This document shows positions 1,864-55,333 of a stretch of 64,000 nucleotides of DNA, in pieces. The notes beneath the pieces were generated by a model that saw only the letters and a list, made by a program, of their open reading frames with translations, was not told the DNA's origin and searched no databases. The stretch lies in assembly GCA_963840685.1 (NCBI GenBank), contig CAWIZM010000001.1, forward strand, positions 752,286 to 816,285, read 5' to 3'. Both the position numbers and the translations under genes were made by a program. How positions within the stretch are numbered: position 1 is the first letter of the stretch; each line of letters opens with the position of its first letter. The DNA comes from an uncultured bacterium. GTDB lineage: Bacteria > Babelota > Babeliae > Babelales > Vermiphilaceae.

Positions 1864-2856
1864 ATGAGAAAACAAATTTATATTCTCCCGTTGTTACTCT
1901 TGCTGAGCGTTTACTCTGCGCGATCTATGGAAAATCAAAAAGAATTAGCATTGCTTGTTGAATGTAATAGCAACAATTCGGTATGCCTGTTGCCAACTGA
2001 TATGCTAACCAAAATTATTGCTCATTATTATGATGATAAAGATCAAGTAAAATCTCTCAAGAGCACTATCGCAAACTTTATGAAATTAAGATCAACTTGC
2101 ACAGGTTGGAATAACTTATTAACGTTTGAGAAGATTGGTGATTTTTGTAAAAATTACCCTCAAGTTATCAAAAATGTTCTTTTAGGAGAACTAACCTATT
2201 CCTCTCGCTTGCCTATATTAGTACTAGTTCATGCCAGTATTGAACCGAGCATTGCTTTTCATAAAATAATTAATGCATTGCTTATCACCGTAGTCAGTAA
2301 AAATGATGTGCAATTGATTAGAATATTATTGAAACATATTGCAAAGCCAAAAGATTGCTTAGAAGAGATTAGAACGGTAGAAATAGCACAGATACTTTTT
2401 AACAATGGTGTAGATATACATACAACAGATTATTATGGACGTAACATTTTATGGAAATTGCTTGGTACATCATACCCATCAGATCTCATGAGGTTCTATG
2501 TTGCATGTGGTGTTGATGCAAGGAGACTAGATGGTTCTGGTGATACTTTGTTGCATAGCCTTGCACGTAAGGCATCAAAGATAAGATTTAGTGTCCCCAA
2601 TGAGGTTGATGATTTCTTAAAAAAAGCAGAATTATTGATAACGATGATTCCAGACATGATTAATAAATTTAACTGCCATGGATATGAATATGTTCAATAT
2701 GAAACGTCGCTTGGCATTGCTCAAAAATGTTTGAAAGATATAGCATCCAGTCATCGCTCTTTATGGGACGAAAAAAGAAGTCAAACAGAAGAAATTTTAG
2801 AGATAGAAGCTCTTGAAAAGCTTATTGTATTACTTCAGAAAAATGGTGCGTACTGA
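1864..2856 (+). CDS. Secreted ankyrin-repeat/F-box-like paralogue 1 (C-terminus truncated relative to paralogue 2 by a 2-nt indel)
   Basis: Signal peptide ending SMEN; F-box-like LPTDMLTKII motif; ANK-like GVDIHTTDYYGRNILWKLL and TLLHSLA. aaggag RBS. Paralogous to 2921..3982 etc. Confidence 0.6.
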   Translation: MRKQIYILPLLLLLSVYSARSMENQKELALLVECNSNNSVCLLPTDMLTKIIAHYYDDKDQVKSLKSTIANFMKLRSTCTGWNNLLTFEKIGDFCKNYPQVIKNVLLGELTYSSRLPILVLVHASIEPSIAFHKIINALLITVVSKNDVQLIRILLKHIAKPKDCLEEIRTVEIAQILFNNGVDIHTTDYYGRNILWKLLGTSYPSDLMRFYVACGVDARRLDGSGDTLLHSLARKASKIRFSVPNEVDDFLKKAELLITMIPDMINKFNCHGYEYVQYETSLGIAQKCLKDIASSHRSLWDEKRSQTEEILEIEALEKLIVLLQKNGAY

Positions 2857-2920
2857 CTGCACAGCAACTTGAAGAACAGAAAAATAGTGCAACATAATAA
2901 TTTAGGAGTTAATACATCAG

Positions 2921-3982
2921 ATGCAAAAACTAAATTCTGTTTTTAAGATCTGTATGGTTGTTGTTTTATTGAGTTCTCTGCCTATGCAAGGTATGGAAGA
3001 AGATTGGCAACGTTTCATACAAAATGCCCAAAGATATGATAGTAATGACAGTGATAATCAATTACTTTCATTGCCGATTGAGATGTTGGGCAAAATTGTT
3101 TCTCATCATTTTGATAATCAAGATCTTTACCCTGACCTCAAACTTTTCATGAAGTTAAGTACAGTATGCAAGCATTTTAATAGATTGTTGACGGTTGAGA
3201 CAATTGCTAACTGCTGTAAAAATTATGAACAACATAGAAGAGATTGGGTTTTAAACGATGTATTTAGTGATGAGCGTTTTAAGTATGTGGCAAAACGTTT
3301 ACCACTTTTAATTTTAGTGTGTGCTGGTGCTGATGATTATAAAGGCGAAATGTTTAGCACATGTCTGCAAAAAAATGACCTTGAACTAGTAGAAATGGTA
3401 TTCAAATATTATCCAAGTCAAAATAAAAGAAAAGCGTTAGGACCAAGTTTTTATCGTGTCAAAACAGTAGAAATGGCACAACTGTTTGTTGATAATGATT
3501 GTTTTGATATATATGGTGGTGGTTTTCATCCGGATGGTAAGCTTAATTTGTTATGGAAAATGGTTGATTCAGCATATTCGCTAGAACTGATGGAATTTTG
3601 TGTTAAGCATACTGATTATATAAAAAAATTAGCTCCTTGTGGGGTTGGTTATACGGCTAGCAATTTTTGTTTGTTGCATGCTATTGCACTGGAGTACCAA
3701 TCAGGTTGGATTACAAATCAGAATGATATTGATACTTTTTTGAAAAAAGCAAAATTTCTTCTGAGTATGATTCCAGATATGATAAATGCGACCGGAGCGA
3801 AGAATGAAACACCTCTTGATGTAGCCTATGCTAGCTTAGAAGATTTAAAAGAGACGGTAAGAAAGGGCTATGAAAGTAAAGAAAAAGTTTTAGCATTTGA
3901 ACAACTTATCGCATTATTTCGGGAACATGGTGCATTGACTGCACAGCAACTTGAAGAACAGAAAAATAGTGCAACACAATAA
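2921..3982 (+). CDS. Secreted ankyrin-repeat/F-box-like paralogue 2
   Basis: Signal peptide ending QGMEE; LPIEMLGKIV F-box-like motif; C-terminal HGALTAQQLEEQKNSATQ shared with family. Confidence 0.6.
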   Translation: MQKLNSVFKICMVVVLLSSLPMQGMEEDWQRFIQNAQRYDSNDSDNQLLSLPIEMLGKIVSHHFDNQDLYPDLKLFMKLSTVCKHFNRLLTVETIANCCKNYEQHRRDWVLNDVFSDERFKYVAKRLPLLILVCAGADDYKGEMFSTCLQKNDLELVEMVFKYYPSQNKRKALGPSFYRVKTVEMAQLFVDNDCFDIYGGGFHPDGKLNLLWKMVDSAYSLELMEFCVKHTDYIKKLAPCGVGYTASNFCLLHAIALEYQSGWITNQNDIDTFLKKAKFLLSMIPDMINATGAKNETPLDVAYASLEDLKETVRKGYESKEKVLAFEQLIALFREHGALTAQQLEEQKNSATQ

Positions 3983-4002
3983 TTTAGGAGTTAATACATC
4001 CA

Positions 4003-5169
4003 ATGCAAAAATTGACTTGTATCTTTAATTTTAATCTAATTTGTTTTTCAACCATTTTGTTCAGTGCGTTACCAGTGCAGGGCATGGAAGGAGCTTGGGA
4101 TCAATGTTTGGCAAGACTCGCATTGGTTAATGCTCAACTATGTAAATCATTAATTAATGCCCAAAGGTATGATAGTGATGATATGCCGGAATTAGTTCGA
4201 ATCAGTGATGATGAATTAATAGAAATAAGTAAAAGAAGGAAATTGGGGTTACTTCAATTAGCTAATGCCAAAGCCAAAGTAGAAGAGCTGAAGAATGATA
4301 TAAAAAGTTTCATGAAATTAAGTACCACATGTAAAAGCTGGAACAACTTTTTAACGTTTGAAAGAATTGGTAGCTTCTGTGAACATTATCCGCTAGAGAC
4401 CAAGAATGAAGTTTTACGATATTTGATAGAAAGCTGGGGCAGTAGTTTTGATGGTGAGTGTCGACCTACATTAATATTAATTTGTGCCGGTGCTGATATC
4501 GATACTAATCATCGCGGTAGAAGTGCTCTTAAAAGAGCTGTCTATAAAGATGATGTGCAATTTGCTAAAACATTATTTAGGTATAATGCAAACCCAAATA
4601 TACAAACATATTATACGTTCGTATCTGGATATTTTCCAGTTTTTTTCTGTGCTAACACGGTAGAGATGGTGCAGACATTTATTGAAAATGGCGTAGATAT
4701 ACAAGCAACAGATTTTGCTGGGCTTAATGTTTTATGGCATATTTTGTACAATGAAGGCTCAGCAGATCTGATGAAAGTTTATCTTGAACATGGGGTTGAT
4801 GCTACAAAATTACACCTTGGTGATAATGCTTGCTTATTACATGCCCTGGCGCATAGCTATTATATACCCTATATTGACAATTTCTTACAAAATGCAAATC
4901 TCCTACTCACGGCTATTCCTGGTATGATTAACACATTGGATGAGGATAATCTTACGCCTCTTGACGTTGCTCAAGAATCTTTGAAAGGGCTACAAGAAGA
5001 CGTAGAAGCGGAAAGCGCATTGAAAGACCTACAAGAAGATGGAGAAGAAGATGGAGTGGTGGAAAGCGCATTGGCATTTGAGAAATTTATCGCATTGCTC
5101 CGAGAACGTGGTGGTCTTACTGCGCAAGAACTTGGGATAATAAACATAGTGGAAAAACTTGATCAATAA
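4003..5169 (+). CDS. Secreted ankyrin-repeat paralogue 3
   Basis: Leader ending QGMEG; ANK repeat HRGRSALKRAVYKDDVQFAKTLFRYNANPN; C-terminal RERGGLTAQELG family motif. Confidence 0.6.
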   Translation: MQKLTCIFNFNLICFSTILFSALPVQGMEGAWDQCLARLALVNAQLCKSLINAQRYDSDDMPELVRISDDELIEISKRRKLGLLQLANAKAKVEELKNDIKSFMKLSTTCKSWNNFLTFERIGSFCEHYPLETKNEVLRYLIESWGSSFDGECRPTLILICAGADIDTNHRGRSALKRAVYKDDVQFAKTLFRYNANPNIQTYYTFVSGYFPVFFCANTVEMVQTFIENGVDIQATDFAGLNVLWHILYNEGSADLMKVYLEHGVDATKLHLGDNACLLHALAHSYYIPYIDNFLQNANLLLTAIPGMINTLDEDNLTPLDVAQESLKGLQEDVEAESALKDLQEDGEEDGVVESALAFEKFIALLRERGGLTAQELGIINIVEKLDQ

Positions 5170-5190
5170 GCACAACAAGGGATATTCTTC

Positions 5191-6277
5191 ATGCAGAAAT
5201 TAACGTTTAATTTTAATCTAATCTGTTTTTCAATTTTTTTGCTCAGTGTGATATCTGTGTGGGGCATGGAGGAAGAGATCAAGCATGATGTTACGCCTAT
5301 AGCAGCAAGCACGCGCAGAGGTTATAGTGTTCAGGATTTACTAAAACAATCACGTTATTGTATAGAACCTGAAGGTCTTGATCTAGCAAAAGAACTTACC
5401 ACGACTATTAAAAATTTTATGCGATTACGTGCCACCAGTGAAAGCTGCAATAGATTGTTTACCCCTGAAAAAATCGGTAGTCTTTGCAAAAGTTATCCCC
5501 AGGAGGTTAAGAATAACGTTTTACGCGATTTAGTAGAAAAAAATAGATACAGTATTCAGTATAAAACAAAGCGGCTGCCGATATTGATGTTAGTCTATGC
5601 TGGTGCTCGTGTCAGCGTTAAAATTAATAATAACTCTTTATTTGAAGATGCAATTGCGCACAATGATGTACCATTAATGAAAACATTGTTTAAATATCAC
5701 ACCTATCAAGATCTGACTGCCGGTATAGGGTTAAGGGAAAAGCCAAGTTTTTTTCTTGCCAAAACGGTAGAGATGGCCGAAAATATTCATTAAAAATAAG
5801 GTTAATGTGCATACAGTTTCTTCTGTATCCAAGACTAATATTTTGTGGGAACTCGTTAATGATCAACATTCATCAGAACTTATGGAATTTTATTGTGCAC
5901 ATAAGGTTGATGTGAAAAAGCTACGGCCGAGTGACCATTCTTGCTTGTTGCATAGAATTGCATTGTTTAATTTTTCTTGTTCTCCTTCGTCTATAAAAGG
6001 GCCACGTCCTTCTGATGATTTTGTATGGTCACATGCAGACTTGAGTGATAATTTCCTTAGAAAAGTAACGTTATTGTTGGATGTTATTCCCGGCATGATC
6101 AATGAATTAAATTGTAATAATGAGACACCTTTGGATATTGCTCAGAAGTCTTTAAAAAATGCACAAATGTATGATATTAAGGCAGTTATTGTATTAATCG
6201 ATCAACTTATTTTACTTTTCAGAAAACAGGGTGCTTTGACTGCACGGGAGCTTAAAGAGCAGGCATTGTTGAAATAG
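5191..6277 (+). pseudogene. Ankyrin-repeat paralogue 4, split into two ORFs (5191..5793 and 5807..6277) by a stop plus frame change
   Basis: N-part has the family leader and FMRL..CNRLFTPEKIGSLCKSYP motif. C-part has LLHRIA, TPLDIA and C-terminal QGALTARELKEQ motif. The two parts are in frames 1 and 2. Confidence 0.5.
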
Positions 6278-6308
6278 ATATATTGGTACTAACAAAGGGA
6301 GATTATGT

Positions 6309-7421
6309 ATGCACAAAGTAATTTTTAGTTTTAATATCATCTATATTTCAATTATTTTTTTCAGTGCATTACCAATGCACGGCATGGAGAAAGAGAACTT
6401 GTGTGAACCGTTGTCTGTAGAAGAATCTGATTACGTTGATCATTTTCTTGCATTACCTGGTGAAATACTGCCCGGCATGCAATCACTTGAAGATAGCGTT
6501 AAATTTTTTATGAAATTGAGCACCATACACAAAAAATGGCATGCATTATTGACGTATGAAGAAATTGGTCACCTTTGTAAATACTATTCACAAGATGATA
6601 AAAACCGGGACTTAGTTTGTACATCAAATTTTCTAATTACACACGGCTATACCTCTAAACGTTTGACGCTATTAACTTTAATATGTGCTGGCGCGAATAC
6701 TATAGGACGTATGTTGCTTGAGAGAGCAGTTATTCAAAATGATGTACAATGCGCAGAAATGATATTCAAGTATTATGAAAATCCCAAAGCCTCAATAAAA
6801 GTATTGAGGGATGGTCCAATACATTCCGATAAAAAATTTAATATATTTCCTATAATTTGCAGTATAGAGATTGCATATATACCATTATTATTTGCGGTCA
6901 AAAGCGTAGATATGGCAAAGATATTTATCGCTCATGGCGCAAACATGCATGAAACCATGTACGATGAGACCTCTACAATAGTACAAAATACAGATTATCA
7001 GAATACCAATGTTTTGTGGCACATAATGGACAATAGTTACCCATCAAGCCTCATGGAATTTTATCTTGCACGTCAGGTTGATACAACAAAACTGTGTGTC
7101 TCTTATAAAGGGAACTTGCTGCATAAGTTTGCTGCAACACCGTATTCAGGTAATATAAGCAGTCTTGATAACTTTATACAAAAAGCAAAACTATTGCTTA
7201 CTACCCTTCCTGCTCAAATTAATGCGTTGAATCAACGTGATCAAACGCCGCTCAATATCGTTAAAAAATCTTTGAGAGCTTTAAAGAAAAGTAAAAACGT
7301 TGCAGCAAAGTTAGCTTTTAAGGTGCTTATTGAATTATTTCAGGAGCATGGTGGTTTTGTGGCAGAAGATCTTAATCGGCTTGCGAATTCTAAATGGATG
7401 AGTCAGCAAAGTTCAATGTAA
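6309..7421 (+). CDS. Secreted ankyrin-repeat/F-box-like paralogue 5
   Basis: Leader ending HGMEKE; LPGEILPGM; FMKLSTIHKKWHALLTYEEIGHLCKYY family motif; ANK-like repeats; C-terminal QEHGGFVAEDL. Confidence 0.6.
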   Translation: MHKVIFSFNIIYISIIFFSALPMHGMEKENLCEPLSVEESDYVDHFLALPGEILPGMQSLEDSVKFFMKLSTIHKKWHALLTYEEIGHLCKYYSQDDKNRDLVCTSNFLITHGYTSKRLTLLTLICAGANTIGRMLLERAVIQNDVQCAEMIFKYYENPKASIKVLRDGPIHSDKKFNIFPIICSIEIAYIPLLFAVKSVDMAKIFIAHGANMHETMYDETSTIVQNTDYQNTNVLWHIMDNSYPSSLMEFYLARQVDTTKLCVSYKGNLLHKFAATPYSGNISSLDNFIQKAKLLLTTLPAQINALNQRDQTPLNIVKKSLRALKKSKNVAAKLAFKVLIELFQEHGGFVAEDLNRLANSKWMSQQSSM

Positions 7422-7460: not shown

Positions 7461-7520
7461 ATCGTTCTTTTTAATGCGTGATCCGCCTACACCGTTACGG
7501 CGTGACAACCACGTCGCGGG

Positions 7521-10242: not shown

Positions 10243-11826
10243 ATGAAACGTTTTTATCAATTATTGTTTGTTGTTGCTGCTTTGGTAAGTGGCACTGTGT
10301 ATGGCATGGAAGTAAATATTAGGGATGCTGATTATGCTGGTCTTATGACGTATCTGAGGGCGAACGGTTATAATTTTAGTGAAGAACAACCATATGAGTA
10401 TGAAGCAAATGCATCTAAGGTGTTACCTGACATAGAAACATTTCTCTTTGCAAATGCAGAACAACAGAATGACTCGTATGTTCAATTATGCATATCTTAT
10501 TTAAATCATTGTTTTTCATCAACTGAATGCAAACCAGAAACTATTGAAGAAATGCTCAGAGCGCGTTTTACTGGTAATTCAGCAAAAGCATTGTTCTATG
10601 CTCCTTATAGACAATTCATGGTTGGGCAGTTGCAATTGGATAAATTGTATCCAGCTATAGAGGCTATTTGTAAGTCAAAAGATATTGATGCAATTTTAGG
10701 TTGGCTATCAATATTTGATGGTATAGATAATTCATGTGAAGTAATGCTTGTTGATCAAGGACTTAGCAAGGTAATAGCGCCTAAAAAGGGAAATGTGATT
10801 GCAATGAGTCCAGAAGAGCATTCATTGTTGCAAAAGGCTAATCATTTACAAGGACGCGGTAAAGCGTTTATTGATACACTGCGCGAGCAAGATCAAAAAG
10901 ACAAAAATGAGCGTCAACAGTTACGTGCAAATGCAGAAAAAAGAAAAGACAACATAGCTGGGCAAATATTTAATGCTCTTAAGCCAAATCAAGAGGCTCG
11001 CTTAGATCAGTTACTGCAAGATGAGTTAATTGGTGATGATGCGCCATTAGGTGAATATCGTGATTTTATTAATGCTGAAATTCAAAAAAGAATAAACGCC
11101 CCTAGGGTAAAAGCAGAAGATCGTGTAGTGCTATTAAACACATGGAACGCTAAGTTTGCTGCATTACCTGTTCAGGTAAAGCCAGAACCGGTGATAATTC
11201 CAGTGATAATTATTGATAATAAGCCACAACAACCGTTAAATCATAATCAAAATAATAATATTCCTAACAATCCAAGCATAGTTTTTCCTTGTGTAGGAGC
11301 AACCTTTTTATTTAATAAAGATGGGAGTCCGTTATCATCTAAAAACCTTGATGATTATCCAGATGGATATGATAAAGATGGCAACAAGATGGTATGGGAT
11401 GATTCTATTAAGAAATATATATTCGAAGGGCAACAACGAAGCGTTACTGAAAAACCAGAAGAACCAAAAGTAGAGTTACCTCAACAACCGCCTCAACAAC
11501 CAAACCAACCAAATGTAGATGGTCAGCCACAGCAACCAGTGCCAAATGCACCAAAAGGCATAGCTGCACTATTCGCGGCAATTACCGCACCTAGATTAGT
11601 AGTTGCGGCAGTTGTGGTGGGTGTATGTTATTGGGGTTACACTAAATATCAAGATTATAAAGCAGTTGAATCCTCCTCCGCCAAGGCTTCGGCGGACAAG
11701 GAATCCTCCTTCGCTAAAGCTACGGCGGACAGGGAAGCTGCAGCTGAGCAAAACAAGCAAAGTAAACAACGCATGCATAAGCAGCAACCAGTGCGCAAAC
11801 CGGTACATAAAAAGCGCACACGCTAA
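10243..11826 (+). CDS. Secreted Pro/Gln-rich protein with a C-terminal TM anchor and basic tail. It contains an in-frame GC-rich repeat insertion
   Basis: Leader ending VYGMEV; PQQP repeats; TM LVVAAVVVGVCYWGY; GC-rich segment at 11655..11725 encoding SSSAKASADKESSFAKATADREAAAEQ. Confidence 0.5.
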   Translation: MKRFYQLLFVVAALVSGTVYGMEVNIRDADYAGLMTYLRANGYNFSEEQPYEYEANASKVLPDIETFLFANAEQQNDSYVQLCISYLNHCFSSTECKPETIEEMLRARFTGNSAKALFYAPYRQFMVGQLQLDKLYPAIEAICKSKDIDAILGWLSIFDGIDNSCEVMLVDQGLSKVIAPKKGNVIAMSPEEHSLLQKANHLQGRGKAFIDTLREQDQKDKNERQQLRANAEKRKDNIAGQIFNALKPNQEARLDQLLQDELIGDDAPLGEYRDFINAEIQKRINAPRVKAEDRVVLLNTWNAKFAALPVQVKPEPVIIPVIIIDNKPQQPLNHNQNNNIPNNPSIVFPCVGATFLFNKDGSPLSSKNLDDYPDGYDKDGNKMVWDDSIKKYIFEGQQRSVTEKPEEPKVELPQQPPQQPNQPNVDGQPQQPVPNAPKGIAALFAAITAPRLVVAAVVVGVCYWGYTKYQDYKAVESSSAKASADKESSFAKATADREAAAEQNKQSKQRMHKQQPVRKPVHKKRTR

Positions 11827-14166: not shown

Positions 14167-15258
14167 ATGCTGGAACTGAGAGAAGTTGTTTACGTTGATG
14201 CGGTACCGACTGGTATTGAATGCATCCTTGGCGCAGATATTGGCGGCACTAACAGTAATTTTGGTTTCTTTCGCCCTCCTTCGCTGAAGATACGGCAGGC
14301 AGGTCGGCAGACAGGTTTAGGGGAAGAACATCTTGAACTCCTCTTTTCTGTGCACGCAAAGAGTCAGTTGGTTACTGATTTTACGGCGCTCGTTAAACAG
14401 ATATTGGAATATGTTCATGCCAAATACAAAATTGAAGTTAAGTACTCGGCCTTTGCCGCTGCGGGTGTGGTGTCAGAGCATCAAGATTATGTAAAGCCGA
14501 CTAATTTACCTATAGTCGTCGATTCTAAAGAAATATTAAAACAAACTCATCTCCATTGTGCGTTTATTGTGAATGATTTTGAAGTTATTGGTTATGGAGT
14601 AGATAGTATAGATCCTAAAGATTTGGTGTTGGTTAATGCGGGTGTTCCGCGTGCACAGGCAAACAGGGCAATTGTAGGTGCTGGTACTGGCTTTGGAAAA
14701 TGTATTATGATTTGGGATCGGCAATTGGGTCGTCATATTCCTTCTGCATCTGAAGGAGGACATGCAGATTTTGCGCCATACAATTTATTAGAAATGGATT
14801 TGGTTAATTATATTAAAAAAGAGAGACAAGGAAATTGCGCGGTATCATGGGAAGATCTACTTTCTGGCGATGGAATTCGGCTTATTTATTGTTTTTTCCG
14901 TGCGCGGGCACAGGATGAGTCTGCAGCGCATCAACCACCTCAAGCAGATGATATATTCAAGGCTCGCAAACAAGATGCCCATGCATATGCTACGTTTAAA
15001 TTATATGCAAAAATATATGCGCGGTGTGCTAAAAATTTTGCATTAGATGCATTAGCGTTAGGTGGTGTGTACATTGCTGGTGGTATTGCAGCAAAAAACT
15101 TGCCACTTTTTGAAAAAGATATTTTTATGACATCTTTTATCAATTGTGGCAAGCAACAAGAGCTACTTAAAGAGGTGCCAATCTACGTTATCACTGACTA
15201 TAACGTGAGTTTGTATGGCGTTGCTGAATACATGCTCATTGAGGGCATGTGTGGATAG
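14167..15258 (+). CDS. glk: Glucokinase (Glk family) carrying an in-frame GC-rich repeat-derived insertion just after the ATP-binding GGTN motif
   Basis: aaggag RBS then ATG 14167; LGADIGGTNSNFGFF matches the Glk N-terminal motif. Inserted loop RPPSLKIRQAGRQTGLGEEHLELL is encoded by GC-rich DNA at 14262..14345 homologous to the intergenic repeats. Confidence 0.7.
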   Translation: MLELREVVYVDAVPTGIECILGADIGGTNSNFGFFRPPSLKIRQAGRQTGLGEEHLELLFSVHAKSQLVTDFTALVKQILEYVHAKYKIEVKYSAFAAAGVVSEHQDYVKPTNLPIVVDSKEILKQTHLHCAFIVNDFEVIGYGVDSIDPKDLVLVNAGVPRAQANRAIVGAGTGFGKCIMIWDRQLGRHIPSASEGGHADFAPYNLLEMDLVNYIKKERQGNCAVSWEDLLSGDGIRLIYCFFRARAQDESAAHQPPQADDIFKARKQDAHAYATFKLYAKIYARCAKNFALDALALGGVYIAGGIAAKNLPLFEKDIFMTSFINCGKQQELLKEVPIYVITDYNVSLYGVAEYMLIEGMCG

Positions 15259-16726: not shown

Positions 16727-17690
16727 CAAACCTCAGTAGGTTGTACACATTTCCCCCACAGCTTTGATAGTCGCTTCATAGAAATCCTGAATGGCTTCTG
16801 CCGCCTTCCTAATTCTTGCTTTCATAGCAGACCAATAGTGTTCAATTGGGTTTAAATCAGGAGAATATGGAGGTAAAAAAATAATTCTACATTGTGCTGA
16901 TTCAATGAGTTCTACAACTTTTTTCGATTTATGAAATCTTGCATTATCAATTATAAGAACCATCCCAGGTCTCAATTGAGGAACTAAAACTTGTTCAACG
17001 TACGTTGCATAGGTACTTGCATTTGAATACCCTTCAAAGACAAATGGTGCAAATAGCTTGCCTTTATTGAGTGCTGCCGTAATGTTATATCGTGCCTTGC
17101 GTATACCTTTTTTCTTGGCAAATAACCGTTTTCCAACAGGGCCCCAACCTTTTGGTGGTGCCTCATTATCATCGATTCCAGCTTCATCTGAATAAATTAT
17201 ATCATCTGGATTAATGTCCTTGATTTTCTCAAGATATTGCTCTCTTTTCTTTTGGTTAGCTTCTACGTAATTGAATGTTTTTTTTTGAAGTGAACCCAAT
17301 TTTCTTTAATGCCCGCTCCATAGTGCTCTCAGAAACAATTTGATTTTTCAACTTCGCCCATTCGACAATCATCATCTTTACTGTAAGATTCCCATTTTTT
17401 TCAACAAACGCTCTGAACTCTTCCCGGTTCGTAATTTTATGACTATGCCCTTTTTGAAAACCAGACTTTGGTTTAAGGCTGTTTGTTTTTTCTAACAGAT
17501 CTTTCCACTTATAGATTACTCTTCTGCTTACATCGAATGTTTTTGCTGCAATCGTTGGTCGCATGCCTTTAGAAATCGCGTTTATTACTCTTTCTCTCAG
17601 ATCTAAACTATATGTTGCCACTGCGTTCTCCTTTTTTTATGTGGCAGCCATTTTATCAGATTTGTGAACTAGTTAAAGAAGTTTGCTATA
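16727..17690 (-). mobile_element. IS630/Tc1-mariner-family insertion sequence. The transposase is in two overlapping ORFs (17256..17621 HTH part and 16733..17299 DDE part), i.e. frameshifted
   Basis: DDE-domain motifs (IIYSDEAGID, LIIDNARFHKS, PPYSPDLNPIEHYW). N-terminal HTH ORF overlaps by 44 nt in a different frame. Short terminal repeat tagcaaac/gtttgcta at both ends includes TA. Confidence 0.75.
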
Positions 17691-17889: not shown

Positions 17890-19032
17890 TTAATCTGCAA
17901 CATATTCTTTTACCGGTTCTATGAGGATGCTGCTTATATCAAACAATTCAACTTTACCATGAGATTGTACTGTTTTTAATGCAATAGTATTTGCAACGAA
18001 AACTTTTTCAAAATTGCTTGTTTGAACCCTATCCAAGGCATTATTGGAGAGTACTGGATGCACAAAATAACCAAAAACATGTTGCGCTCCTCTTTCTACC
18101 AATGCATCACATACCTGTAATGCGGTACCGCCAGTATCAATCATATCATCAACAATTATTGCGGTGGGCGTACTGAGTTCGCCAGACATACTCATAATTG
18201 CGGTCTTGTTTTGCGCATACCGATTTTTTGTGAAATATATGGTGTTACTATTTAGTTTTTGCGCAATGGTATGAGCGCGATCATATGCACCTTTGTCCAC
18301 CGCAATTAATGATACACCGTGCGATAGATCGATGTGCTCTCTAATATGTTGGGTGATGAGGTCAAGAGGAGAGAGTGAATGGAAGGGGATAGTGAAAAAG
18401 TTTTTGAGTACTGGTGTATGTGCTTCAATGGTCACTACTTGGTCGATACCTGCGTTTTGAAGCAATTGTGCGACAACGTGTGCAGGGCCAAATTTGCCAG
18501 GAATACGGCTCTTTTCTTGTCGTGAATAACCAAAATAAGGAATGATAGCAGTAATTTTTGTGCATCCGGTATTTTTAAGTTCATGCGCTAAAAATGCAAC
18601 ATGCATAATCTGTTCCTGTGGGGAGGGATAGGTTGTTTGAATAATAATGGCATGTTTGTTTAGCCAAAAATTAGCATCTTTATCTGTCTCTTTAAGGGTG
18701 ACTTCTGTTTCGCCGTCAGAAAACCGTGTAACTTGTGCATGATGCAAGTACTTATCAAAATGCTCAACAAGGGAGAGTCCTATGCTTGAGGTATCGAGGG
18801 CTATAAATTCAAAACCGTCTTTACTTTCTGAGCAATCAATCATTTCTTGAGAATTATTTTTGCTTTCTGTAAAGCTTCCGCTATCTACTGCATATGGCAA
18901 AGAATATGGATATGCTGGATTGTCTTTGTTTGTTTGATTTACATCGAGCATGCCTACAAGATTTCCGTTGAGCGTTAGGAGTATGAGTGCGAGGTGTGAT
19001 ATGAAGAAGTTTTTCATGAGCAGCTCTTTCAA
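17890..19032 (-). CDS. prs: Ribose-phosphate pyrophosphokinase paralogue 2 with an about 75-aa N-terminal extension carrying a signal peptide
   Basis: Full-length Prs homology (RFSDGE, IPYFGYSRQE, IVDDMIDTGGT) preceded by MKELLMKNFFISHLALILLTLNGNLVGM leader. Confidence 0.8.
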   Translation of the reverse strand: MKELLMKNFFISHLALILLTLNGNLVGMLDVNQTNKDNPAYPYSLPYAVDSGSFTESKNNSQEMIDCSESKDGFEFIALDTSSIGLSLVEHFDKYLHHAQVTRFSDGETEVTLKETDKDANFWLNKHAIIIQTTYPSPQEQIMHVAFLAHELKNTGCTKITAIIPYFGYSRQEKSRIPGKFGPAHVVAQLLQNAGIDQVVTIEAHTPVLKNFFTIPFHSLSPLDLITQHIREHIDLSHGVSLIAVDKGAYDRAHTIAQKLNSNTIYFTKNRYAQNKTAIMSMSGELSTPTAIIVDDMIDTGGTALQVCDALVERGAQHVFGYFVHPVLSNNALDRVQTSNFEKVFVANTIALKTVQSHGKVELFDISSILIEPVKEYVAD

Positions 19033-19119: not shown

Positions 19120-19275
19120 CTTGGAATTAGAAAATTAAAAAGCCCGTTCGCCCTGAGCTTGTCGAAGGGTACGGGCCTATGCTTCGACCCAGCCTTCGTT
19201 AAAACTTCGGCGGGCACGGCAGGCTGAGGCCATGGTCCGACGTAGCCTATCAGCACGAACGGCCTAGAATAATTA
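19120..19275. repeat. GC-rich palindromic intergenic repeat element (family member)
   Basis: ccctgagcttgtcgaagg / ccttcg... arms; shares segments with 20733..20805, 26885..26965 (reverse orientation) and 41640..41770. Confidence 0.7.
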
Positions 19276-41639: not shown

Positions 41640-41770
41640 TAAGTGCTGAGAATGGCTGCATTCTTTGTCTTCGGTGACATTGATGCGGCCTGTCCTTCGT
41701 AGCCTTGCCGTGCCCGCCATAGCTTTTAGCGAAGGCTGGGGCGAAGTAGGGCCAGTTTTGTTTTCAAGCT
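41640..41770. repeat. GC-rich palindromic repeat element
   Basis: gccgtgcccgccatagcttttagcgaaggctgggg shared with 61125..61235 and the reverse complement of 19195..19235. Confidence 0.7.
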
Positions 41771-55183: not shown

Positions 55184-55333
55184 GTCGTTGCGAGCTTGCG
55201 AAGCAATCCAGGCTAATCATTTATGCTGTATTGTTAGATGCTGCTGTTAATTTTGATTTAAATTTTTTATTTTTTTGTTAGCTGCTGGTTGGTTTATAGT
55301 TTTTCCTGGATTGCTTCGCAAGCTCGCAACGAC
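55184..55333. repeat. MITE-like element: perfect 29-bp terminal inverted repeats flanking an AT-rich 92-bp core
   Basis: gtcgttgcgagcttgcgaagcaatccagg (55184..55212) is the exact reverse complement of 55305..55333. Confidence 0.75.

Follow-up and report, generated by a model that had tools for sequence, protein, structure and literature searches.

A 30-nucleotide GC-rich hairpin unit, inserted in frame in genes of a Babelales bacterium, recurs across more than 12 bacterial phyla

The window examined here (the whole stretch of 64,000 nucleotides, from contig CAWIZM010000001.1 of an uncultured bacterium of the Babelales) contains, at 10243..11826, an open reading frame (ORF) that carries two tandem copies of a short GC-rich unit; this unit, its other copies and its behaviour as an insertion are the subject of this report. 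The ORF encodes a lineage-specific protein of 527 residues for which no Pfam family was matched. Look-ups by exact sequence gave no match for its product or for a second protein of the window. As read from the sequence, the product starts with a signal-like segment (MKRFYQLLFVVAALVSGTVYG) at its N-terminus; a conserved N-terminal domain follows, then a linker rich in Pro and Gln, a C-terminal hydrophobic anchor (..VVVGVCYWGYTKY, ending VCYWGYTKY) and finally a K/R-rich tail of 60 residues, with the repeats at the start of the tail, C-terminal of the anchor. The initial annotation had described a secreted protein; because the signal-like N-terminus is accompanied by a C-terminal hydrophobic anchor, with the repeats lying beyond it, the product appears better described as membrane-anchored, and by the positive-inside rule the repeat-bearing tail is probably cytoplasmic. 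The two units add 22 Ala/Ser/Lys/Asp-rich residues to this tail, an addition that is probably neutral and whose consequence for the protein itself would be modest. Seven homologs of the ORF were found, all within the synteny ndk–rpsA–ORF; the labels L001, L002, L003, L004, L005 and L007 below denote loci with such homologs.

The window is AT-rich (~38% GC), and positions 11665–11752 form one of its few islands with at least 63% GC. The GC-rich block reported within the ORF is present there as quoted, in frame, and consists of two head-to-tail repeats of 33 nt (11668–11700 and 11701–11733; repeat family D11) that are 85% identical and read ESSSAKASADK and ESSFAKATADR, the imperfect peptide repeat that had been noted. 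The 18-mer CGCCAAGGCTTCGGCGGA had been matched to a second place in the window; it does recur, with one mismatch (0 matches in 100 shuffles), at 61197–61214 rather than at 61190–61207, an offset of 7 nt. A 25-mer said to match a copy in glk agrees at only 21 of 25 positions, with no match at three or fewer mismatches, and it is by profile that the glk copy is significant.

Copies within the window were counted with nhmmer, using a profile built from six copies, and then with a covariance model built from copies of other organisms and run with filters off. The nhmmer matches at 11672, 11705, 14275 (glk), 19190, 26925 and 61190 have E-values of 2e-7 to 3e-5, and the same profile matches minus-strand copies at 41709–41737 and 61150–61175. 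The covariance model recovered the same eight copies, with unit 2 of the ORF as its top match (45.8 bits), plus one weak remnant. Membership of the window copies in one family is thus far above chance, and the element is not confined to the two places first noticed: there are eight clear copies in the window, three within ORFs and five intergenic, the latter all in short spacers, and further copies in other phyla. The features are as follows.

10243..11826, plus strand: host gene of the two tandem units, described above
11671..11700, plus strand: unit 1 (TCCTCCTCCGCCAAGGCTTCGGCGGACAAG), matching the family consensus at 28 of 30 positions; frame-F1 reading SSSAKASADK
11704..11733, plus strand: unit 2 (TCCTCCTTCGCTAAAGCTACGGCGGACAGG), with the loop variant CTAAAG/TACG; frame-F1 reading SSFAKATADR
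14275..14316, plus strand: glk copy of 42 nt, made of a left half of 18 nt and two right halves of 12 nt each
19189..19218, plus strand: intergenic copy downstream of pth, within a 125-nt mosaic of GC-rich modules (19140–19264)
26924..26953, plus strand: intergenic copy flanked by two minus-strand ORFs
41681..41758, minus strand: intergenic island downstream of aspS, with one unit (~41708–41738) nested in the loop of an outer unit
61149..61178, minus strand: intergenic copy in the gatB–tpiA spacer, inverted relative to its neighbour at 61189..61218
61189..61218, plus strand: intergenic copy in the gatB–tpiA spacer (TCCGACTTCGCCAAGGCTTCGACGGATACC), the first 26 nt of which equal unit 1 of the L003 ortholog
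7480..7513, plus strand: weak match, probably what is left of a decayed copy, downstream of ndk (E about 3 at 10 bits)

A GAA triplet precedes unit 1 and gives the tandem its 33-nt period. The nested unit at 41681–41758 lies, on the minus strand, between TTCGC and CAAGG of the outer unit. ORF 60342..61202 over-extends tpiA, since its TIM domain begins only at residue 37, and a plausible start, MKPFLYIANWKMN, lies downstream of both copies near 61.1 kb, which are for this reason taken to be intergenic. Extrapolated from eight copies in 64 kb, the density is roughly 100–150 copies per Mb. Six or seven copies lie on the plus strand and two on the minus strand, a bias that is not significant.

The consensus 30-mer, TCCGCC–TTCGCYAARGCTWC–GGCGGA–CAAG, comprises a 6-bp stem, a 14-nt loop and a 4-nt tail, and the loop holds a small inner GC(Y)..(R)GC stem. 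In a logo of 122 cross-phylum copies, information falls from ~1.5–2 bits to ~0 bits exactly at positions 1 and 30, and positions outside the search pattern are conserved as well (TCCGC upstream at 70–97%, CAAG downstream). Beyond the unit the flanks are random, with only a weak C-W preference upstream and no fixed target tetranucleotide. The stem was examined by covariation in two ways. A profile built on sequence alone collected 36 further copies; measured against the hairpin, these had 93% of their cells paired and 35 cells with double-sided compensatory change, against 12.9 ± 2.8 after shuffling (0/500); structures slid by one to three columns collapsed to 31–51% pairing. A metagenome scan with TTCGCCAAGGCTTC-N6-CAAG, which leaves both arms unconstrained, returned at least 119 distinct matches, and among those listed 53 had 6/6 and 45 had 5/6 Watson–Crick pairs; perfect complementarity in 53/119 of the matches listed compares with 1/4096 by chance. 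These loop-anchored matches include at least 12 arm types, for example TCCGCC/GGCGGA, CCCGCC/GGCGGG, TCCTCC/GGAGGA, TCCCCC/GGGGGA and CCAGCC/GGCTGG. Within the loop, positions 12 and 15 covary as C-G or T-A by 143 to 7. An alternative fold, GCCTT[CGCC]AAGGC, was rejected, as position 15 covaries with position 12 and not with position 6. On the strength of the two covariation tests the stem is real despite a weak fold, and the unit is a constant loop and tail on a free, self-complementary stem. Mismatches among the listed loop-anchored matches are C.A/A.C in 37 cases against G.T in 17, counts made non-independent by subfamilies, which hints weakly that folding takes place on the complementary strand. 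The commonest variant (CCAAGG/TTCG) is stop-free in all six frames, and other variants have stops only in F3 and R3. A subfamily with correlated, non-complementary changes, CCGAC...GACGG, places A opposite A in the stem (61189–61218; L003 1924–1953; L017; L042; L016) and recurs in Babeliales-like, Saccharimonadales and Opitutales sequences, and its compensated form CCGTC...GACGG occurs in L107 and L125.

Comparison of filled and empty sites shows that the unit behaves as a discrete insertion that enters DNA as an exact unit. The glk product of the source genome (P0008) has 363 residues, and homologs 87, 86 and 81% identical to it have 349, lacking exactly the 14 residues PPSLKIRQAG..LGEE, located in a turn after the GGTNSNFGFF motif; at the DNA level the filled site has a net gain of 42 nt over the empty site in L132/L133. 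The copy is read there in frame F2 as PPSLKIRQAGRQTG (PPSLK.R..G). A second case lies in the Pro/Gln linker of the ORF itself, where L003 reads CAACAA[CCCGACTTCGCCAAGGCTTTGACGGGCAGG]CCAGATAAT (inserted stretch in brackets) and its closer relative L001 reads CAACAACCAGATAAT, with nearly identical flanks. The difference is exactly 30 nt (10 residues), its edges coincide with the unit boundaries given independently by the logo, and there is no target duplication beyond an ambiguous CC; L007 holds a similar copy at a CAA^CCA site. The unit has thus been gained or lost between close relatives. These two sites bear out the suggestion that a dispersed repeat family is tolerated in frame within coding sequence, and the in-ORF lengths of 30, 42 and 66 nt are all multiples of 3. 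The accompanying expectation that in-ORF copies would encode similar peptides failed: the glk copy is read in a different frame from those of the tail, so the peptides differ, and over all in-ORF copies frames F1 and F2 and the reverse frame R2 are used.

Turning to the history of the tail copies, the 97% identical ortholog L004 has the same two units, and L003, with an overall identity of only 43%, likewise has two, at the matching codon position and with the loop variants in the same order. As the pair is shared with so distant an ortholog, the tail array is old. Decayed or partly deleted remnants stand at this position in L001 and L007, a trace at most in L002, and L005 has a left-left-right-right nested copy further downstream in the tail. 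When the window is compared with L003, identity at third codon positions is 0.91 across the units' 22 codons and 0.53 over the remaining gene; for positions 1 and 2 the values are 0.77 and 0.67, respectively. The orthologs are therefore conserved here at the DNA level, not the protein level: third positions are kept better than positions 1 and 2 within the units, which indicates that the DNA sequence itself is maintained or refreshed. Copy number differs as well, with five copies in the first 21 kb of the window and one each in the syntenic 18–21 kb of L001, L005 and L007. Near-consensus tail units after long divergence would be best explained by re-insertion or by gene conversion from the many copies of the genome, and a copy-rich window lineage beside copy-poor relatives fits either process.

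Searching one genome per species (596 Gb in total) for the 21-nt core CTTCGCYAARGCTWCGRCGGA returned at least 120 loci against ~4–6 expected by chance according to our own calculation. Among the matches listed, the 30-mer is found in more than 12 bacterial phyla, plus viral contigs, and across these phyla the loop and the CAAG tail are invariant and the 6-bp stem covaries freely. The matches listed include cultured isolates or complete genomes of several Bradyrhizobium, Maricaulis, Bdellovibrio sp. HCB288, Cerasicoccus, Palleronia and Thalassobacterium, and metagenome-assembled genomes (MAGs) of Verrucomicrobiota, Acidobacteriota, Bacteroidota, Planctomycetota, Patescibacteria, Dependentiae/Babeliales, Bdellovibrionota, Elusimicrobia, Nitrospirae, Armatimonadota and Actinomycetota, together with one Rickettsiales MAG (L101); no archaeon is named in the record titles of these matches. 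The unit also had 35 matches in IMG/VR viral contigs, and BLAST against PLSDB plasmids and INPHARED phages gave only chance-level partial matches.

Placement was counted in loci with GC below 0.52, where ORFs are easier to read, taking an open frame of at least 150 codons as the threshold. In these loci 36/52 copies lie outside such frames and 16/52 inside, the latter read in frames F1 (9), R2 (4), R1 (1), R3 (1) and F3 (1). Judged by flanking sequence, in-frame copies occur in housekeeping genes, including the P-type ATPase gene copA (DSAFAKASADKEK), rlmN (SSAFAKATADKG), tgt (SSAEALAKAD), pheT, leuS and a SpoU/TrmH methylase gene (trmH); these six are known from their in-frame position, and comparison with insert-free homologs covers glk and the ORF linker. 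Relative to the host gene, in-ORF copies run in the same direction in nine cases and antisense in seven, and intergenic copies between co-directional genes in four and eight, respectively. A function at the RNA level on one strand was considered, and these orientation counts are mixed.

Copies are arranged as singles, 33-nt tandems, inverted doublets, runs of several left halves followed by several right halves (with arrays of several left and right halves in L051), and units nested in the loop of another, as at 41681–41758 of the window and at 2580–2650 and 1700–1800 of L035. At the end of a Chitinophagaceae MAG contig (L119, 2985–3221) lies a head-to-tail array of at least seven copies with a 29-nt period, unlike the solitary copies or 33-nt tandems of other loci. 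A tRNA gene stands within 200 nt of the unit in 8/60 loci (L009, L025, L027, L038, L039, L045, L054 and L061; also in L100 and L245). The L039 unit has tRNA-Ile on one side and tRNA-Ala on the other, two genes that are typically paired in the spacers of rRNA operons. In Bradyrhizobium the unit lies inside a larger palindromic composite with arms ..GCGAAGCAATCCAG.. / ..CGCTCGCAATGACG, which resemble the module at 55184–55333 of the window.

That module is a 150-nt element, similar in form to a MITE (a miniature transposable element bounded by inverted repeats), with perfect 29-nt inverted arms (GTCGTTGCGAGCTTGCGAAGCAATCCAGG) around 92 AT-rich bases, located between a MoxR-type AAA gene and dcd. 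Its arm motif GCGAAGCAATC is shared with the unit-carrying Bradyrhizobium composite and has eight matches in the cross-phylum loci against 0.55 expected. A second family of GC-rich modules, CCCGTTCGCCCTGAGCTTGTCGAAGGG, occupies 19140–19170, 20736–20759 and 20769–20799; a 97% complementary pair of these brackets pth–prs, with a local hairpin in the ompH–prs spacer, and the motif CTGAGCYTGTCGAA of this family was found three times in the cross-phylum loci against 0.01 expected. The ompH–prs spacer or the prs N-terminus looks like a hot spot: L132 carries the hairpin unit there (5375–5410), the window carries the second module family (20732–20908) and L001 a weak unit (17243–17278), so that the GC-rich module is a different one in each relative. 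Nearby, an IS630-family insertion sequence (IS) occupies 16727–17690 on the minus strand, with HTH_Tnp_IS630 and DDE_3 ORFs (16733..17299 and 17256..17621) that overlap as if joined by a frameshift, and with inverted ends TATAGCAAAC... Adjoining it is a second and longer prs-like gene (17890..19032; 380 residues; Pribosyltran_N, Pribosyltran and Pribosyl_synth domains), which is 78% identical in DNA over 300 nt to the canonical prs (19811..20731); this extra block is missing from the relative L132. Elsewhere in the window are five tandem paralogous ORFs of ~330–390 residues (1864–7421; repeat families D4, D6, D7, D9 and D12–D14), whose counterparts in relatives give faint ankyrin matches; a second cluster of paralogous ORFs on the minus strand (21631–24997; D1, D3, D5 and D8); and ORF 25288..26136, which carries, in this bacterial setting, a BRO-N domain of the kind typical for proteins of phages and large viruses.

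We consider it probable that the unit is a discrete, non-autonomous, selfish hairpin element of 30 nt, akin to repetitive extragenic palindromes (REPs) and Rickettsia palindromic elements (RPEs), that is tolerated in frame. Under this proposal a trans-acting enzyme encoded elsewhere would copy the unit as a single-stranded hairpin, with a single-stranded DNA transposase of the HUH type, like the REP-associated tyrosine transposases (RAYTs), as the best guess. Such a mechanism is favoured by the combination of a hairpin and a conserved tetranucleotide with neither terminal inverted repeats nor target duplication, and by the exact insertion, possibly exact loss and insertion into hairpin loops that the unit displays. 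Copies within ORFs may then be the survivors of selection, as the length is a multiple of 3 (30; halves of 18 and 12), the commonest variant is stop-free, and the sites are loops, linkers and tails.

Several observations weigh against this proposal. No transposase was found near copies among the ORFs scanned, which flank or lie between copies in the window and in six copy-rich loci and gave IS630, gyrB, deoxyhypusine synthase, an AbrB-like antitoxin (by eye) or nothing; nor was a Y1/HUH or RAYT gene found among the scanned ORFs next to or between copies. The sole IS in the window, the IS630-type element at 16733..17621, has ends (TATAGCAAAC..) unrelated to the unit. In thermodynamic terms a single unit folds weakly (z = -0.9 to -1.8), and each copy in the window carries one or two stem mismatches. 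The linker case may reflect an exact loss in L001 rather than gains in L003 and L007, and the tail copies, the array being old, have no clean empty site. Survivorship is something we infer, and disrupted genes would go unseen in such a comparison. Finally, the same loop and tail in more than 12 phyla, unlike those of REP families, which normally diverge along with host and RAYT, hint at a conserved partner or function, and such constancy is not what a lineage-bound selfish element predicts.

This last point leads to a broader reading that we advance tentatively, as possible rather than probable: an undescribed pan-bacterial mini-element, gained and lost as an exact unit and able to sit in frame even in essential genes, that would imply one very widespread or universal trans-acting partner. 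The partner could be a single-stranded DNA nuclease or transposase, or a core replication or repair enzyme, and the accompanying GC-rich modules (GCGAAGCAATCCAG.., CTGAGCTTGTCGAAG..) would belong to the same system. The chance that something not yet understood underlies the conservation across phyla is substantial. In the literature searched for the unit's DNA and its encoded peptides we found no paper describing it, and no repeat family described with such a cross-phylum spread; broader searches brought up only papers on REPs, RPEs, MITEs and PARCEL elements, coverage was incomplete, and an earlier description may exist. An origin in a universal RNA (the rRNA 3' end, SRP or tmRNA) was considered on general grounds, and nothing supported it. 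Rfam 15 gave no gathering-score match in the window, with noise only at E ≤ 10 on two copy regions, and in 18 cross-phylum loci only tRNA and a cobalamin riboswitch, both away from the unit.

The same constancy could instead mean that the unit benefits its hosts, as a structured motif of DNA or RNA (for example a site bound or processed by a very conserved factor, a hairpin that stabilises mRNA or a tRNA-adjacent signal) whose copies are kept by selection. An invariant 14-nt loop and CAAG tail on a covarying stem in more than 12 phyla would suit such a motif, as would the position of intergenic copies in short spacers between co-directional genes, the tRNA genes within 200 nt in 8/60 loci and the conservation of the in-ORF copy at third codon positions. 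We nevertheless judge a host function unlikely, because copies occur in both orientations within ORFs and between genes, sit inside unrelated housekeeping genes, are present or absent between close relatives without compensating change and decayed in some orthologs, differ several-fold in number between syntenic regions of relatives, and match no Rfam family. Spread without dedicated machinery, by template switching, microhomology-mediated repair or gene conversion between hairpins after horizontal transfer had seeded the lineages, is a less probable account still. It would explain why no associated enzyme appeared among the ORFs scanned near copies, why half-units duplicate independently (left-right-right in glk; the L051 arrays) and, through gene conversion, why copies are near consensus in a copy-rich genome and decayed in copy-poor relatives; the inserted stretch is, however, a clean and complete 30-nt unit between random flanks, and the same loop across phyla would be hard to obtain from undirected repair errors.

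A native coding repeat of 11 residues, serving as a functional motif of the tail, arisen by duplication within the gene and resembling other loci only incidentally, is very improbable. The units are indeed tandem and in frame, their hydrophilic peptide has a helix-prone look, and a 43% identical ortholog has two units at the same place; against this, the 30-mer recurs outside coding DNA, on the opposite strand and, in glk, in another frame, the ortholog differences fall on codon positions 1 and 2 with position 3 conserved, the repeat is lost or degraded in other orthologs, and the identical unit is found in unrelated phyla. That the family reflects chance, low-complexity GC-rich similarity or an artefact of MAG assembly or contamination is scarcely credible: many matches do come from MAGs, but at least 120 loci stand against ~4–6 expected, flanking positions that were not part of the search are conserved too, complete genomes and cultured isolates are among the matches listed (Bradyrhizobium, Maricaulis, Bdellovibrio and Cerasicoccus), copies lie in frame in conserved genes, and the arms are perfectly complementary in 53/119 of the matches listed against 1/4096 by chance.

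If it holds that one hairpin keeps its loop across so many phyla while the stem drifts by compensatory change, and that it enters and leaves genes as an exact unit, a very widespread agent would be writing short hairpins into bacterial DNA. The element would be a source of recurrent insertions of 10–14 residues in conserved enzymes, and many 'hypothetical proteins' would be spurious annotations caused by it. It would also provide a tractable test case for selfish DNA surviving in coding sequence, since its length is fixed at 30 nt, its filled and empty sites are clean and its main variant is stop-free in all six frames.

Among known classes of repeat, a CRISPR repeat was rejected because the copies are not regularly spaced around unique spacers but solitary, inverted or in tandems without spacers, and an intrinsic terminator because of the CAAG tail, the random flank that follows it and the occurrence of both orientations. 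MITEs are likewise short, non-coding and dispersed, and an IS630-family IS is present in the window; they measure 70–300 bp, however, with terminal inverted repeats and a TA duplication, and the 30-nt unit has neither. A MITE, for example one derived from IS630, was rejected, as the inserted entity is exactly 30 nt, shows no duplication beyond the ambiguous CC and is unrelated to the ends of the window IS. The GC clusters of yeast and fungal mitochondrial DNA are short, GC-rich, hairpin-forming and mobile-like; the genome around them is AT-rich, and some lie in frame in genes. The unit would share with them the GC-rich hairpin and the AT-rich genome, and would differ in that the clusters are organellar and have different sequences.

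Closer in behaviour are the RPEs, which Ogata and colleagues in 2000 reportedly described as selfish palindromic elements lying in frame in protein genes whose function is kept. RPEs typically sit in surface loops or termini and are confined to Rickettsia, and RPE-1 measures 100–150 bp. The unit resembles them as a probably selfish palindromic repeat of an AT-rich intracellular bacterium, here a Dependentiae-like host, inserted in frame in protein genes: relative to homologs without the insert, glk has 14 and the ORF linker 10 additional residues. It differs in its length of 30 nt, against 100–150 bp for RPE-1, and in its wider host range, as far as the descriptions of the two go.

With the substrates of IS200/IS605 transposition (subterminal hairpins and PATEs) the unit shares a hairpin with a short conserved flanking motif, the absence of target duplication and possibly precise excision (PMC6006769), and the likeness is solely one of form. 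IS200/IS605-type elements exceed 100 nt and require two ends that differ; the unit has no fixed target tetranucleotide; a phylogenomics paper on HUH enzymes does not mention the unit's motifs. PARCEL elements (PMC2996958) are also palindromic coding repeats with horizontal spread among distant microbes, but they form a protein repeat of 25 residues in long tandem arrays, unrelated to the unit in size and sequence.

The most detailed likeness is to REPs, whose GTAG and CGTC superfamilies comprise tagged palindromes of 20–40 nt that are mostly extragenic and sometimes lie inside ORFs, for example in Opitutus terrae and, as RPE-4 and RPE-6, which are equated with CGTC REPs, in R. conorii (Di Nocera et al. 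2013, PMC3733652). REPs are RAYT-associated (PMC2817692). Like them, the unit is an imperfect GC-rich palindrome within the 20–40-nt range, with a conserved tetranucleotide at one end and no terminal inverted repeats, and it lies for the most part between genes that are co-directional or convergent, either singly or in inverted dimers and clusters, and now and then adds a short peptide within an ORF. Its palindrome consists of a stem and an inner stem backed by covariation, with a weak fold, and its copies are mostly extragenic (5/8 in the window; 36/52 low-GC copies outside long ORFs). No match to the unit's peptides was found in the lists of REP-encoded peptides in PMC3733652. The same paper describes GTAG-14 REPs of Bradyrhizobium with 'GCGG/CCGC type loops up to 27 bp' (PMC3733652), and these loop variants are probably the 30-nt unit nested in the REP loop. 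The unit's own tag is neither GTAG nor CGTC but CAAG (CTTG when read on the opposite strand); its logo ends in CAAG and TCC, and GTAG occurs only internally, on the complementary strand of the TACG variant. In the unit it is the loop that is conserved and the stem that varies. Small palindromic repeats such as REPs and RPEs are usually treated as lineage-bound, and REP families are mostly bound to a species or genus, whereas this one 30-nt hairpin recurs with the same loop and tail across more than 12 phyla.

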